A program made the position numbers and the translations under genes. The notes beneath the pieces are model-generated. The model saw only the letters and a list, made by a program, of their open reading frames with translations, did no database searches and was not told where the DNA came from. Below, piece after piece: positions 39,678 through 49,095 of a stretch of DNA of 64,000 nt. The DNA is from Gammaproteobacteria bacterium (GTDB lineage: Bacteria; Pseudomonadota; Gammaproteobacteria; SZUA-140): contig JALSGV010000201.1 of the NCBI GenBank assembly GCA_026982565.1, positions 27,658 through 91,657 of the forward strand. The letters run 5' to 3'. The first letter of the stretch is position 1. Each line of letters opens with the position of its first letter.

Positions 39678-39858
39678 ATTACAGTCTCCAGACTGGATCA
39701 GGAAGAATCTCCTTAACGTTAATGAGTACCACATTATCCTTGGATATGGAGTCATAGTCGTTCATAGAGAGTTTTTTTAACTGGCCATATCCGACCGCAA
39801 CTACAATAGTCATATCTTTTACATTCCGACCTGAGAATATTTTAAGGTTTGATCTCTT

Positions 39859-40143
39859 TTATTAACCCGGCAATAATATATATCGTATTCAGCCATTGCG
39901 TGCCGGTTCGCTGCAAGGCGGCGAAACTTGCTGTAGTCATTCTACAGCAAGTTTCGCCAACGCAGTCAGCGGGACGGCACGCAATGGCCTGTCTTTTAAT
40001 ATCAACCTGTTAGGGACTTCAGGCCTGCGCTGGCACGGCGTTGCGGCGCTTGCCAATGGAATCACCATTGCCTGCGCACCGCGCCTTGTTCCAGCACAGG
40101 CCTGAAGTCCTGAATACGATATATATTGTTGCCGGGTTAATAA
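39859..40143. mobile_element. 285-bp MITE-like element: 34-bp terminal inverted repeats (33/34 match) enclosing two long near-perfect hairpins
   Basis: Left TIR ttattaacccggcaataatatatatcgtattcag (39859-39892). Right TIR ctgaatacgatatatattgttgccgggttaataa (40110-40143). Internal perfect inverted repeats: ccattgcgtgccg/cggcacgcaatgg and ggcgaaacttgctgtag/ctacagcaagtttcgcc. Also gacttcaggcctgcgctgg/ccagcacaggcctgaagtc. Confidence 0.55.
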
Positions 40144-40530
40144 CCAGCCGCGGGATTCCATGTCGATCAAGATGCGTTCCGCGTCTTCTGTTAGTGTGGC
40201 TACATGCTCATGTCCTTTTTTTAGGGCATCAGCCAGCCTGCCGACCCTGACAGAGGGGGTCTCTTTCTCCACAATCTGCGCCAGGTTGGGGGCGCTAAGC
40301 ACAACATCTATCTTCCGTCCCCCTAACTTGAGACTGATGCGGCCCGATATTCTCGCACTCAGCCATGCGGGCTCATCAACCGGATGCGGGATTTCAACCA
40401 GCAGGTCAATATCACCACCACGGGCATTATCATCTGTGCGGGAGCCAAACAAGGTGACTTGCGCCTCATCTCCAGCCAGGTCCGCAATTGCCTGGCGGAT
40501 TATATCAATTTGATACGGTTCTAGTCTCAT
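39937..40530 (-). CDS. minimal nucleotidyltransferase (MNT, Pol-beta superfamily) antitoxin-like protein; 3' end runs into the MITE-like element
   Basis: From the ATG at 40530: MRLEPYQIDIIRQAIADLAGDEAQVTLFGSRTDDNARGGDIDLLVE (GS…DIDL NTase motif). The frame continues without a stop into the element, and the last ~68 codons are element-encoded. The native C-terminus is probably lost. Confidence 0.6.
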   Translation of the reverse strand: MRLEPYQIDIIRQAIADLAGDEAQVTLFGSRTDDNARGGDIDLLVEIPHPVDEPAWLSARISGRISLKLGGRKIDVVLSAPNLAQIVEKETPSVRVGRLADALKKGHEHVATLTEDAERILIDMESRGWLLTRQQYISYSGLQACAGTRRGAQAMVIPLASAATPCQRRPEVPNRLILKDRPLRAVPLTALAKLAVE

Positions 40531-40678: not shown

Positions 40679-40945
40679 CTATCCGTAGTACGTCCACATT
40701 CGGATAATTTTAACAACACGCTCTTCTTCGTAAACTTGATAGACCAATCTATGTTGAATATTTATTCTTCTTGAATATGCCCCAGACAAGTCACCAACTA
40801 GCTTTTCATAAGGTGGTGGTTTTTTATAAGGATTCTCTTGCAGCAATTCCAGCAACGATTTAGCCTTCTGCTTCAATCCAGATGCTGCAATTTTCTTAGC
40901 GTCTTTTTCTGCCTGTTTTGTATACATTAACTCCCAACTCACCAA
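40679..40945 (-). CDS. yoeB: YoeB/Txe-family toxin (RelE/ParE superfamily)
   Basis: …YSRRINIQHRLVYQVYEEERVVKIIRMWTYYG parallels E. coli YoeB …WSRRITEEHRLVYAV…IAACRYHY. Seven-bp overlap with the upstream antitoxin. Confidence 0.85.
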   Translation of the reverse strand: MVSWELMYTKQAEKDAKKIAASGLKQKAKSLLELLQENPYKKPPPYEKLVGDLSGAYSRRINIQHRLVYQVYEEERVVKIIRMWTYYG

Positions 40946-41181
40946 TCAAGCTCCTTAGAGCACTCTGATATATTTTGACTCATACCTTCTTTAATTGATT
41001 CCCGCATTCCGGGTACTGACAGCAAATGTAGCGTTTCAGCAATTGCATTCCAATCGTCCTCAGACACAAGGACGGCATTAGCTCTTTTTCCCGTAATTAC
41101 AATGGGTTGATGAGTCTCCGCCGCCTCATCAATAAGGCTATAGAGCTTAGAGCGGGCTTCTGTTGCATTCAATATAGTCAT
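40939..41181 (-). CDS. yefM: YefM/Phd-family antitoxin
   Basis: MTILNATEARSKLYSLIDEAAETHQPIVITGKRANAVLVSEDDWNAIAETLHLLSVPGMRESI is a typical Phd/YefM fold sequence. Direct GTAC-containing repeats lie upstream (41195-41230), consistent with a YefM-YoeB operator. Confidence 0.85.
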   Translation of the reverse strand: MTILNATEARSKLYSLIDEAAETHQPIVITGKRANAVLVSEDDWNAIAETLHLLSVPGMRESIKEGMSQNISECSKELDW

Positions 41182-41698: not shown

Positions 41699-42031
41699 TT
41701 AGGCTCTTTCGTAGAATACTTTTCCCGCCCTTTTTATATGCTCGATCAGATTCTCATTGTCTATCTGATCATATAACGACAAGTCTGTTTTATAGGGCAA
41801 TAACAAATCGTCTATCTTCAGTTCAATGGCTTGCAGATCCTCCCATTTCATCGCTGACCCTATTATTGTCAGGTCGATATCTGACGCTGGTCTGTAGTCG
41901 CCTTTAGCCCTTGATCCATAGATTATAACCTGTTCTACAGCAGGCGTATCCGCGAATATGCTGCGTATTTTCGAGATGACTTGTTCGTCCAGGCCAAAGT
42001 CCGGCTCGATATTATTGGGCGCTGTGTTCAT
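41699..42031 (-). CDS. minimal nucleotidyltransferase (MNT) protein, second copy in the triad
   Basis: …VIIYGSRAKGDYRPASDIDLTIIG… Four-bp overlap (ATGA) with the upstream HEPN gene. Confidence 0.75.
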   Translation of the reverse strand: MNTAPNNIEPDFGLDEQVISKIRSIFADTPAVEQVIIYGSRAKGDYRPASDIDLTIIGSAMKWEDLQAIELKIDDLLLPYKTDLSLYDQIDNENLIEHIKRAGKVFYERA

Positions 42032-42450
42032 GCAGCACCTTCCTGCAGATGCGCCAGGCGCTTATCCAGCGCCATGAACAGTTGATGATATTTGTCCTTT
42101 ATATTTGTTAGTATCGATTCCGCCGTTTCTTCATTGTACGTATGCGAGGTTCGATTTCGATCAACCAGCATTTGCATCCAACCCTCACCATCTTCGATCA
42201 ATCCTCTGCTGAAGCTTTCCCGTATGGTGTCACGAGAACCCACGATTCCACCGATACCTTGCCATAATAGGTAGTCCTTCAGCGCATTCCAGGCAAGCTC
42301 GTAGGTATATTCAAAAGCCTGAATCACGCCCTGTTTTTCCAAAGGCGTCAATTCCCGTTCCGCCATCAGGCGCATGGCGCTATCCAGCTGTCCAAAAGCC
42401 TTTTTGAATTGGGCGTATCTTTGCTTCCAGCGGATATCTTCGTTTGTCAT
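42028..42450 (-). CDS. HEPN-domain protein (HepT / HI0074-like nucleotidyltransferase substrate-binding protein; putative RNase toxin)
   Basis: Rx4HxY motif present: DRNRTSHTY. 140 aa, helical. Four-bp overlaps on both sides with the flanking MNT genes. Confidence 0.8.
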   Translation of the reverse strand: MTNEDIRWKQRYAQFKKAFGQLDSAMRLMAERELTPLEKQGVIQAFEYTYELAWNALKDYLLWQGIGGIVGSRDTIRESFSRGLIEDGEGWMQMLVDRNRTSHTYNEETAESILTNIKDKYHQLFMALDKRLAHLQEGAA

Positions 42451-42740
42451 AGCTGAATTCCTGTTTTTTTCGCCATGCGGTGGATGGCTCTCAATGGCGC
42501 ACTCCGGAGTTTTAGGTCGATGTCTATTCGCTGTTCCCCGATACGCTCCCAGAGCTTGCTGAGTATGCGGAATTTGTGCTTTAACAATTTCTCCTGGATT
42601 TCCGTTTCAGCATAAAGATCGATATCACCACCATGGCGGGAATCATCTAAGCGTGACCCAAAGAGGTAGATATCTGCCGTAGGGTCCACGCCGTGAATGA
42701 CCTCGCGGATTGCCGTTTTTTCATGTTCATTCAAGCGCAC
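42447..42740 (-). CDS. minimal nucleotidyltransferase (MNT) protein, first copy in the triad
   Basis: MRLNEHEKTAIREVIHGVDPTADIYLFGSRLDDSRHGGDIDLYAE…. Confidence 0.75.
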   Translation of the reverse strand: MRLNEHEKTAIREVIHGVDPTADIYLFGSRLDDSRHGGDIDLYAETEIQEKLLKHKFRILSKLWERIGEQRIDIDLKLRSAPLRAIHRMAKKTGIQL

Positions 42741-47187: not shown

Positions 47188-47706
47188 CTATTCCCCGCAT
47201 AGCACTATCTTTTTCGGCAACCTCTCCTCGTTGACGCCCATGCGCACCTTGGCATAATCACGGATCTTGTTATAGGCGTTAAGCAGAAGATGGCTGTATT
47301 CCTTCGCCATTTTCAGGTCTTCCGCAAAGGATTCCGGACTCTGCATGTGTTCATGTACTAAGCGGTTGCGCAATTCCCGGGCCTCAAGCCATCGCTCAAC
47401 GCTGTCCATTACACCCAGTTGCTCAGCACGGTTCAGGTTCTCTATCAGACTGCCTGGCCTTTCCGCCTGGGCCATAAGCCATCGGGGAAGGAGCTTATCC
47501 GCTATGGTATCCTGCATGCGGCCGAACCGGGAGACAAAGGCTTCAAGCCGCTCAGCAATCTCCGGCGCGGATTCCAGTCCGCGCACCCAATCTGCCGTAA
47601 TAGCACAGGCATCCAGCCGCCCCCAACTGTAAGCAAGGTGCCTTCCCTCATGGGAAACGATATCCAGAGTATGGAGAAAGCGGTCTACCGGCAAAACCTT
47701 GTTCAT
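47188..47706 (-). CDS. HEPN-like putative toxin partnered with the upstream MNT
   Basis: 172 aa, helical, with RNRLVHEH (Rx4H, a HEPN-type motif). The ATG overlaps the MNT stop (ATGA at 47703-47706). Confidence 0.55.
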   Translation of the reverse strand: MNKVLPVDRFLHTLDIVSHEGRHLAYSWGRLDACAITADWVRGLESAPEIAERLEAFVSRFGRMQDTIADKLLPRWLMAQAERPGSLIENLNRAEQLGVMDSVERWLEARELRNRLVHEHMQSPESFAEDLKMAKEYSHLLLNAYNKIRDYAKVRMGVNEERLPKKIVLCGE

Positions 47707-48002
47707 AGCTGCACCCCTGAGCGTAATGCTTCCTCATGTACGGCTTGACGCTGAGTCTCTGGATCGAGAATCAAGACATCGATGGGTTGGTCGCCAAGAC
47801 GGACCTGGAGACGGGCCACGAATTTTAACACCTTGCGTTCGCGTTCGCTGACAGGGTGTTCAGAACGGACAAGAAGATCGATATCGCCACCACGAGCTTC
47901 ATCATCGACGCGGGAGCCAAACAAGAGAACACTGGCATCCGGACCAAATATCTCATGCACGGTCTCGCGGATTACGGATTTTTCTTCATCGGTGAGGCGC
48001 AC
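47703..48002 (-). CDS. minimal nucleotidyltransferase (MNT) antitoxin-like protein
   Basis: (V)RLTDEEKSVIRETVHEIFGPDASVLLFGSRVDDEARGGDIDLLV. The N-terminus aligns with the other MNTs in this window (MRLNEHEK…, MRLEPYQ…). This favours the GTG start at 48002, five nt after the gmd stop, over the in-frame ATG at 48056 inside gmd. Confidence 0.65.
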   Translation of the reverse strand: MRLTDEEKSVIRETVHEIFGPDASVLLFGSRVDDEARGGDIDLLVRSEHPVSERERKVLKFVARLQVRLGDQPIDVLILDPETQRQAVHEEALRSGVQL

Positions 48003-48006
48003 CTTG

Positions 48007-49095
48007 CTATTCGTGGTAATCAAAGGTCCTGAACCCTTCCCGGCGGCAGAGTTCATCGCGTTCCGCTGTTTTGAGATCCTCCCGCACCATTTCCGCAACT
48101 AGTTCGTCCAGCGTAATCCTTGGCTGCCACCCCAGCTTTTCCCTGGCCTTGCTTGCGTCTCCCAGCAGGGTCTCGACTTCCGTTGGCCGGAAATAGCGTG
48201 GATCCACCGCCACAATCAGTTTACCCGTATGTTCGTCAAAACCTTTCTCTGCTTCACCCTCGCCTTCCCAGCGTATGCCGATGCCAAGCTCCTTCGCGGC
48301 GGCATTGACGAAATCCCTGACGGTGTATTGTATACCACTGGCTATAACGAAATCTTCCGGCTCATCCTGCTGCAGCATCAGCCACTGCATTTCCACGTAG
48401 TCCCTGGCATGCCCCCAGTCGCGCCTGGCTTCCAGATTTCCCAGAAAAAGGCAGTCCTGCAGCTCAAGCTTGATGCGCGCCAGGGCGCGGGTGATTTTCC
48501 GGGTAACAAAGGTTTCACCCCGCAGCGGGCTTTCATGATTGAACAATATGCCGTTACAGGCATAGATGCCATAGGCCTCGCGGTAATTGACCGTGATCCA
48601 GTAGGCATAGAGTTTTGCCACCGCATAGGGTGAGCGGGGATAGAATGGCGTTTTTTCGTTCTGAGGCACTTCCTGGACCAGACCATAGAGCTCGGAAGTG
48701 GATGCCTGATAGTATTTTGTTTTCTTTTCAAGTCCAAGAATACGGATCGCCTCCAATATACGCAGGGCGCCGAGAGCATCGGAATCAGCGGTGTATTCCG
48801 GTTCCTCGAAAGAAACCGCGACATGGCTCTGGGCAGCCAGATTATAAATTTCATCAGGCTGCACCTGCTGAATCACCCGGATCAGGCTGCTGGTATCCGT
48901 CATATCGCCGTAGTGAAGGACGAAATGGCGGTTTTCAACATGAGGATCCTGATAGAGATGGTCTATGCGATCGGTATTGAAGAGGGAGGTGCGGCGCTTG
49001 ATACCATGTACTTCATACCCCTTGGCCAACAGGAACTCAGCGAGGTAAGCGCCATCCTGACCGGTAATACCAGTAATCAAAGCCCGCTTTTTCAT
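48007..49095 (-). CDS. gmd: GDP-mannose 4,6-dehydratase
   Basis: [37 protein letters not shown]…YGDMTD…YNLAAQSHV… is the canonical Gmd sequence. 362 aa. Confidence 0.95.

Follow-up and report, generated by a model that had tools for sequence, protein, structure and literature searches.

Correia elements (NEMIS) of Neisseria carry terminal inverted repeats (TIRs) of ~26-30 bp and a central IHF site, duplicate a TA dinucleotide and occur as full-length and internally deleted classes; they insert near genes, have no identified transposase, and form co-transcribed hairpins that are processed by RNase III. ERIC/IRU repeats are imperfect palindromes of transcribed intergenic regions, with TA as target and with reported effects on mRNA stability, and the miniature transposable elements with inverted repeats (MITEs) of the IS630/Tc1-mariner group likewise insert at TA and duplicate it. 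MITEs whose interior is conserved better than their ends are unusual. The TIMEs, MITEs derived from Tn3, have 38-bp repeats of the Tn3 family and AT-rich duplications of 5-6 bp (PMC4133298). Here we report on a palindromic element within a 64,000-nt stretch of a gammaproteobacterial contig (GenBank JALSGV010000201.1, positions 27,658 to 91,657; hereafter the window). Our analysis makes it very probable that this element is one copy of a non-autonomous DNA transposon, a MITE, belonging to a family not described before. As a kind of element it is ordinary; what is noteworthy is the strength of the covariation in its hairpins, together with a core that it has in common with a family bearing other ends. 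Neither Rfam nor the searchable literature holds such a family, and we found no paper in which MITEs are connected with Sedimenticola or in which one of the two end sequences is given in such a context.

An earlier note on this DNA had proposed a non-autonomous MITE-like element, for which dispersed copies with the same TIRs and variable flanks would speak, and such copies are abundant. An exact 24-mer from the TIR, searched against species-representative genomes, was present in at least 91 DNA stretches from at least 10 gammaproteobacterial metagenome-assembled genomes (MAGs); 48 of the first 80 loci belong to one Sedimenticola MAG and the rest to nine others, assigned to Thiohalobacter, Chromatiales, Thiotrichales and unclassified gammaproteobacteria. 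The loci that were fetched (labelled L006, L097 and so on; all other coordinates are positions in the window) contain 156 end matches with at most 6 mismatches and 43 complete copies, all with different flanks, besides 79 further TIR matches that are unpaired. No match to the element was obtained in 5,426 E. coli genomes (blastn, E 1e-5) or in phage and viral collections. For the RpsA protein, identity is 97% with "MAG TPA Gammaproteobacteria bacterium", 79% with a MAG of Chromatiales and 73% with Thiohalobacter.

The copies are modular in size. Complete ones span 163 to 337 bp, with 285-287 bp as the commonest length, followed by 247, 214, 337 and 196 bp and rarer classes. Hairpin 1 is precisely absent from the 196- and 247-bp classes, and the 214-, 247- and 337-bp classes carry a 51-nt insert inside hairpin 2; the ends of the variants are constant. 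This insert was found in copies of the Sedimenticola MAG only, in about one third of them, and hairpin 1, or most of hairpin 2, is missing altogether from some copies. The insert (CGCTGGACAGGATGTCCAAGTGTCGCGAGTGCATGGATGCACTGGAGCGAC; L021, L050, L038, L014 and others, alignment columns ~193-243) itself contains two small hairpins and may be a micro-element nested in the copy. A 113-bp mini-variant (L097:17608-17720) consists of the two TIRs and a short stretch of hairpin 2, and therefore both hairpins can go while the ends persist.

Copies often lie just past stop codons, and their two orientations relative to the neighbouring genes are roughly equal, with no bias. In six of them (L012, L021, L027, L037, L043 and L087), a converging gene has its TAA stop at one and the same position in the terminus of the element (...TAT TAA), which would follow if insertion had targeted the TA of a stop codon or if the terminus supplied the stop. 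Many MAG contigs end inside the element, which leads to frequent assembly breaks in Sedimenticola-like genomes. Although gene callers rarely call open reading frames (ORFs) inside the element, a peptide profile of hairpin 2 and the right TIR retrieved two contigs.

Presence and absence at orthologous sites point to mobility. A copy 95% identical to that of the window lies on one of these two contigs, at L097:9774-10058, between an FGGY kinase gene and an alcohol dehydrogenase gene; it is the closest relative of the window copy, and the two are homologous from TA to TA. In the relative L098, recovered through its FGGY protein (91% identity), the orthologous intergenic region is without ~283 bp, and both flanks align. 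This comparison of an empty L098 with a filled L099 between the kinase and dehydrogenase genes gives the presence or absence of the sister copy, not of the window's own site. Altogether, the dispersed copies, the closely similar copy elsewhere, the empty orthologous site and the lack of a transposase in the window (see below) agree with the non-autonomous element that had been proposed. None of the three findings that the note would have taken as a refutation was obtained.

The ends of the copies reveal a consistent target. When 171 ends are pooled, A stands at position -1 in 94% and T at -2 in 93%; T follows at -3 in 69%, A or G at -4 and T at -5 in 50%, with background composition beyond. 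The base outside the conserved TA differs between copies, and adjacent copies use one common TA (L029, L006 and L043). The family ends are TTAACCCGGCAAC...GTTGCCGGGTTAA, and the repeat starts TTAACCC. This pattern fits an element that inserts at the TA of a roughly palindromic, AT-rich site (T-TA-A) and duplicates this TA, and the empty site of the window is predicted to have read CGCGGCTGGTTAAAAGAGATCAAACC. In comparison with the other copies, the window element occupies 39860-40142, that is 283 bp with the flanking TAs, around a core at 39862-40140. The boundaries given before (39859-40143) were thus nearly right: the element is there, but the outermost T/A of the 34-mer belongs to the flank, and the true ends are at the TA dinucleotides.

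The element is laid out as a ~31-bp TIR, hairpin 1, an AT-rich spacer, hairpin 2 and the second TIR (Table 1). The earlier note had described the termini as reverse complements at 33 of 34 positions, and our repeat search returned the same figure (97%; 39859-39892 against 40110-40143); the 34-mer arm has no further site in the window, and none of 100 shuffles contains a match (0/100). The two hairpins of about 95 nt announced between the termini were found as well, each ~97 nt long, but their stems, put at 13, 17 and 19 bp, measured 22, 17 and 23. Folded as RNA, the whole element forms a three-way junction on both strands, and both folds are very stable, at -186.1 kcal/mol for the plus strand (z -19.2) and -184.3 kcal/mol for the minus strand (z -18.4), compared with about -90 for shuffles.

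Table 1. Features of the element, of the adjoining genes and of the related family (window positions unless a locus is named; aa, amino acids)
Feature	Position	Strand	Basis or remark
Left flanking TA, probable target-site duplication	39860-39861		171 pooled ends; homology with L097 starts here
Left TIR, TTAACCCGGCAATAATATATATCGTATTCAG	39862-39892	+	Constrained in sequence; 18/30 helix pairs invariant in 21 copies
Hairpin 1, ~97 nt	39892-39988		Outer stem 39892-39913/39967-39988, 22 nt, 86%
Hairpin 1 inner stem	39920-39936/39942-39958		17 nt, 100%; loop TCATT
Central AT-rich spacer with TATCAACCTGTTA	40000-40012	+	Exact match to the IHF consensus WATCAANNNNTTR
Hairpin 2, ~97 nt	40014-40110		Outer stem 40014-40036/40088-40110, 23 nt, 91%
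Hairpin 2 conserved apex, ~55-60 nt, GCGTTGCGGCGCTTGCCAATGGAATCACCATTGCCTGCGCACCGCGCCTTG	40037-40098	+	Common to a second MITE family with unrelated ends
Right TIR	40110-40140	-	One mismatch against the left arm
Right flanking TA, probable target-site duplication	40141-40142		Copy comparison, pooled ends
MNT (minimal nucleotidyltransferase) part of the decayed fusion, residues 1-84	40279-40530	-	PF01909 9.7e-6; 99-aa homologues up to 84% identical
3' remnant of HEPN-like partner, ORF residues 96-129	40144-40245	-	64% identity over 39 residues, E 7e-16, BLASTP against L093:1816-2307
Tail of the read-through ORF, element-encoded, ~68 codons	39937-40143	-	Stop at 39937-39939; no real protein segment
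3' stump of WbpA-like UDP-sugar dehydrogenase gene, last ~50-59 codons and stop	39679-39858	-	Exhaustive phmmer
~265-bp TA-flanked MITE family, apparently unnamed	L121:2341-2608, L122:4001-4270, L123:3001-3270		Profile and layout

The IHF consensus is present at the central position exactly in 4 of 43 copies and with one mismatch in 19 of 43, compared with 0.15 and 4.25 in shuffles. Because the motif is inherited among the copies, it counts as a weak lead only, to a candidate site. Promoter and terminator predictions on the element itself gave nothing beyond chance, and a sigma-54 or sigma-70 promoter in the apex of hairpin 2 was ruled out by eye, the spacing being wrong. At 283 bp, within the ~600 bp expected of a MITE, the element has no coding capacity of its own, and ORFs run through it by accident; a profile of the pseudo-peptide, made from 10 copies, met just 4 called 'proteins' among 5.8 billion.

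We found pronounced covariation in the hairpins. From an alignment of 21 copies belonging to the 285-bp class (mean column identity 86%), RNAalifold predicted 93 pairs, and 97.8% of the cells are paired. Changes on both sides occur in 31 of the 93 pairs, against 16.7 +/- 2.2 in shuffles and 5-8 with the partners slid by 1-3 columns. The hairpin helices hold 29 of these 31 doubly changed pairs, with compensatory changes in 16 of 35 pairs of hairpin 1 (helices 2-4) and in 13 of 28 pairs of hairpin 2 (helices 5-8), while in the TIR helix 18 of 30 pairs are invariant. The alignment indicates that the TIRs are constrained in sequence, as expected for a transposase recognition site, and the hairpins in structure. 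Within the hairpins, the apex and the loops stay constant while the stems diverge with compensation. Mismatches counted by cells comprise 80 G-T and 26 A-C, a strand asymmetry that might have been a sign of RNA; counted by independent events they are balanced (27 against 22), and this sign was dropped.

The note had seen no transposase in the window, and Pfam scans of 40 window ORFs and the gene table of the central 20 kb agree. In the fetched loci (~660 kb), there is no repeated segment of at least 450 bp, no pair of ends of insertion-sequence size and no clean pair of ends 0.7-4 kb apart, and homology running inward from unpaired ends never passes 285 bp. A pair of ends 1.7 kb apart in L079, considered as an autonomous element, consists of two separate copies around ordinary genes. 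Plasmids searched with the ends alone returned chance matches only and no annotated insertion sequence with these ends, nor did we find an IS630-family transposase or a matching end. Since MAG assemblies usually lose insertion sequences, the absence of a transposase is weak evidence. We propose that a DDE transposase supplied in trans would bind and cleave at the TIRs, and that it would insert the element at the TA of a T-TA-A site and duplicate this TA, a habit of IS630/Tc1-mariner elements and of some IS5-family elements.

At its present site, the element separates the remnants of two genes, both on the minus strand like all genes around it. On one side, the MNT ORF from the ATG at 40530 reads into the element, just as the earlier note described. 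The further suggestion that the element had replaced the C-terminus of the MNT protein or a downstream HEPN partner did not hold up: the ORF was already a decayed fusion, from which the element cut off the last ~5-6 codons only. The 198-aa ORF is not conserved as a protein family, all MNT homologues being 99 aa long and matching residues 1-84 only, in the first two-thirds of the query. In relatives, the MNT gene is followed by that of a partner of 163 aa, whose Pfam signals (NTase_sub_bind, HepT-like) are weak; in its intact form this partner ends ...ESRGW-IIQEE*, and the window reads ...ESRGW-L and then enters the element. Judged by these relatives, the 198-aa ORF is an artefact, an in-frame fusion in which the 99-aa MNT is joined to the ~35 C-terminal residues of its HEPN-like partner (163 aa). 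An internal deletion ~100-130 nt upstream of the element took the MNT C-terminus and ~124 partner codons. The 243-aa gene call of the source contig at this locus is an artefact too.

On the other side, a 59-codon frame runs from the element to a stop just before wbpB, where a 44-aa ORF has been called. Residues 12-59 of the 59-codon frame align with the C-termini of P0129 and P0130 (E 2-4e-4, 45-48% identity, among 1.8 billion proteins), which are fragments of the UDP-glucose/GDP-mannose dehydrogenase family with PF03720 (UDPG_MGDP_dh_C) at 6-8e-24. Pfam and PDB searches of this stump gave nothing, and only exhaustive phmmer matched; the rest of the WbpA-like gene is absent from the window. 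In the alignment, the homology is visible from about residue 8, or nt 39837, and on this basis the deletion junction is at the element or at most 22 nt away. As to the earlier idea of a recombination junction for the exchange of O-antigen cassettes, there is a deletion junction within ~22 nt, but nothing shows such an exchange. An independent Logan assembly (L127, from SRR7968108) has the same junction of wbpB and stump, and its contig starts 13 nt inside the TIR (L127:1-20), the kind of effect that multi-copy repeats have on short-read assemblies. The exact WbpB protein was also found on one short Logan contig starting inside the TIR.

Assuming that the element is a MITE, it would have inserted 5-6 codons before the stop of a HEPN-like gene already fused to the MNT gene, and the ORF would read ~68 codons into it by accident. 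The loss of most of the WbpA-like gene would be explained most simply by a deletion adjacent to and associated with the element, or by recombination between two copies. Lying between the toxin-antitoxin island and wbpB, the element would be transcribed together with them, its hairpins being kept folded by compensatory change. The three-way junction (about -185 kcal/mol) would most likely be a barrier in processing, stability or termination, a role that ERIC and Correia elements have been shown to play.

Somewhat short of an even chance is the explanation that the element is a passive marker at this junction, the truncation of the wbpA-like gene dating from the acquisition of the toxin-antitoxin island and the element having inserted later, by chance, at an AT-rich site nearby. 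When the element and one TA are taken out in silico, the ORF would end GW-LKEIKP*, close in length to GW-IIQEE*, as a simple insertion gives, and the preference of the family for AT-rich sites near gene ends makes the spot a likely one anyway. On the other hand, the junction and the element coincide within 22 nt, and no relative that has the junction but not the element was found.

Some observations weigh against our own reading of the element as a MITE associated with the deletion. The wbpA-like deletion may be independent of the element, and the 22 nt between the element and the first clear dehydrogenase residue may belong to either flank. We found no allele in which the window's own site is empty. 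The TA is palindromic, the single empty site (L098) has diverged too far around its junction for a base-by-base reading of the duplication, and no nested insertions that would expose it were found; the flanking TA could still be part of the repeat. The family profile finds one copy only in the 64-kb window, a count that applies to this window. A cognate autonomous element with the same ends was found neither in the window, nor in the fetched loci, plasmids, viral and phage collections or E. coli, and it is solely from the TA flanks that we infer the family of the transposase. As for the hairpins, templated repair from arm to arm in a long palindrome can also give compensatory change without selection. 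G-T and A-C mismatches are balanced and orientation bias is lacking, and therefore neither strand stands out as a functional RNA and any role at the RNA level is putative.

The core of the element is found in a second family. Among plasmids the element has one match only, in Azotobacter chroococcum pAcX50f (BLASTN, E 2e-9, with 88.7% identity over 53 nt). This match belongs to an element of ~265 bp that has the same layout of TIR, hairpin, spacer, hairpin and TIR and folds at -175 kcal/mol; relatives of this element are on a plasmid of P. aeruginosa PA83 and a chromid of Halomonas PA16-9. Searched by nhmmer with the profile of the window's family, L121, L122 and L123 match at E 8e-9 to 1e-7, over profile positions 179-240 only. 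The shared part is the ~55-nt apex of hairpin 2, at 85-90% identity, and hairpin 1 is alike in layout and loop only. The ends of the ~265-bp family, which read TA followed by GGGTCTGTTGACGTTT..., are unrelated to those of the window's family; they too are TA-flanked, and the elements are intergenic. Their first 15-19 nt are the ends of an annotated IS5-family insertion sequence of ~0.85 kb, TA-flanked and present on Paracoccus plasmids (L125 ~2003-2845); in the plasmid search, the ends of the window's family had no IS5-family counterpart.

Rfam gave nothing on the Pseudomonas-type relatives. The GGGTCTG start of the Pseudomonas-type end had raised the question of membership in the TIMEs, which is ruled out by the TA flanks and the match to IS5 ends. 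A Pseudomonas-type end (T-TA-GGGTCTGTTGAC) is contained in primers for lpg2920-21 of Legionella pneumophila, directly downstream of a toxin-antitoxin locus (PMC12457610). This would be a second such element abutting a toxin-antitoxin module, which may be a coincidence.

We consider it possible, though unlikely, that the conserved unit is the folded core, above all its ~55-nt apex together with the surrounding two-hairpin layout of the three-way junction, as a functional cargo repackaged between unrelated TIRs. The core would have been retained across gammaproteobacterial orders while TIRs of unrelated transposases replaced one another around it, and the element would owe its persistence to it. 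Such a core could be a site that binds a host factor or a transposase, in the manner of an enhancer, or a transcript-processing signal, and a function of this kind would explain the compensatory change in the hairpins. Consistent with it are the identity of the apex across elements that have the same layout and unrelated, IS5-type ends, the constancy of apex and loops next to stems that diverge with compensation, and an IHF-like motif that is kept in the central spacer. However, only ~55 nt are statistically shared, and the resemblance of hairpin 1 is one of layout. Hairpin 2 is interrupted by the 51-nt insert in about a third of the Sedimenticola copies, and hairpin 1 or most of hairpin 2 is missing from some, and therefore neither is needed for a copy to persist. 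The core has no Rfam match, and common ancestry with a later exchange of the ends would produce this picture with no function involved. If true, a functional core would provide a clear case of selection on the interior of a MITE rather than on its termini.

Far less probable is the alternative raised in the earlier note, a stand-alone structured non-coding RNA gene whose termini would form the closing helix. The very stable folding and the strong covariation would suit such a gene, but each genome has dozens of copies, which lie at unrelated sites and in either orientation relative to the neighbouring genes, orthologous sites vary in presence and absence, and the copies behave like mobile DNA. 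Moreover, the two strands fold equally, G-T and A-C mismatches are balanced, no promoter or terminator stands out beyond chance, and Rfam returned no family at threshold, the best match being MIR862 with 31.5 bits against a threshold of 100 and the matches being generic long hairpins (plant miRNA models). Equally remote is a REP/BIME-type palindromic repeat moved by a RAYT (REP-associated tyrosine transposase) on single-stranded hairpins, which would share the structured intergenic nature, the frequent position past stop codons, the modular sizes and an IHF-like site as in E. coli RIP/BIME, but which is at odds with sequence-constrained TIRs of ~31 bp and TA flanks, with units of ~280 bp that are single or paired with a common TA where REP units are 20-40 bp in tandem clusters, with the lack of matches in REP-rich E. 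coli genomes and with the fact that no RAYT-like gene was noticed beside the copies, the fetched loci not having been scanned for protein domains.

The element, which we regard as a MITE, lies inside a ~33.7-kb polysaccharide cluster (window ~17.8-53.2 kb) between a galU-like NTP-transferase gene and pyrF. In a relative (L096:10353-12110), the galU-like gene and pyrF are adjacent, with a MITE copy just beyond galU. The earlier note had placed the element where a low-GC block meets a toxin-antitoxin island; it does stand at the border of a ~40% GC block and a ~48% GC island, but inside the cluster and not at its outer edge, and the low-GC block and the polysaccharide genes continue on both sides. 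The cluster holds genes for an APS kinase, an SLC13 permease and a sulfotransferase, which suggests, from gene content, that its product is a sulfated polysaccharide.

Toxin-antitoxin modules are unusually dense in the cluster, all on the minus strand: a Phd/YefM-YoeB pair at 40679-41181, a triplet of MNT (97 aa), HEPN (NTase_sub_bind, 140 aa) and MNT (110 aa) at 41699-42740, and a further MNT (131 aa) with a 172-aa partner among GDP-sugar genes at 47188-48098. In the relatives L093-L095, an MNT pair is found just upstream of a polysaccharide operon with a NusG/RfaH-like gene. Exact-protein look-ups showed that the fusion ORF and YoeB are not on record and that the antitoxin is on the source contig only.

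These results bear on annotation as well as on biology. The 243- or 198-aa "nucleotidyltransferase" would be better annotated as a pseudogene fusion into a repeat, and the 44-aa ORF beside wbpB as a gene stump; the repeat also breaks assemblies of Sedimenticola-like MAGs, with many copies at contig ends. For the biology of these organisms, our findings add a high-copy MITE family in uncultured gammaproteobacteria of the sulfur cycle. One of its copies sits at a deletion junction in a polysaccharide cluster, and such repeats can drive the loss or exchange of surface-antigen genes there.

Several described systems resemble this family in part. With the MITEs of the IS630/Tc1-mariner group it has in common the palindromic, AT-rich preference around TA, a link through target choice alone. 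Like the TIMEs, it is non-coding and ~260-285 bp long, with conserved core stretches, similar predicted folds across classes and a connection to Pseudomonas replicons; the TIMEs differ in their 38-bp Tn3-family repeats, where our element has unrelated repeats of ~31 bp and TA flanks. ERIC/IRU repeats are likewise palindromic and intergenic, have size variants that arise from internal indels at fixed sites, and target TA, but they are 127 bp long against 283 bp, have another architecture and, since the E. coli genomes gave no match, are unrelated in sequence. Correia elements are similar in their layout, in the TAs that flank them, in having modular size classes and in an IHF-like motif at the centre, and their ends are presumably unlike TTAACCCGGCAAC. 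Compared with them, the family described here is twice as long, folds two ~97-nt hairpins into a three-way junction instead of one long hairpin, and resides in uncultured Chromatiales- and Sedimenticola-like hosts.

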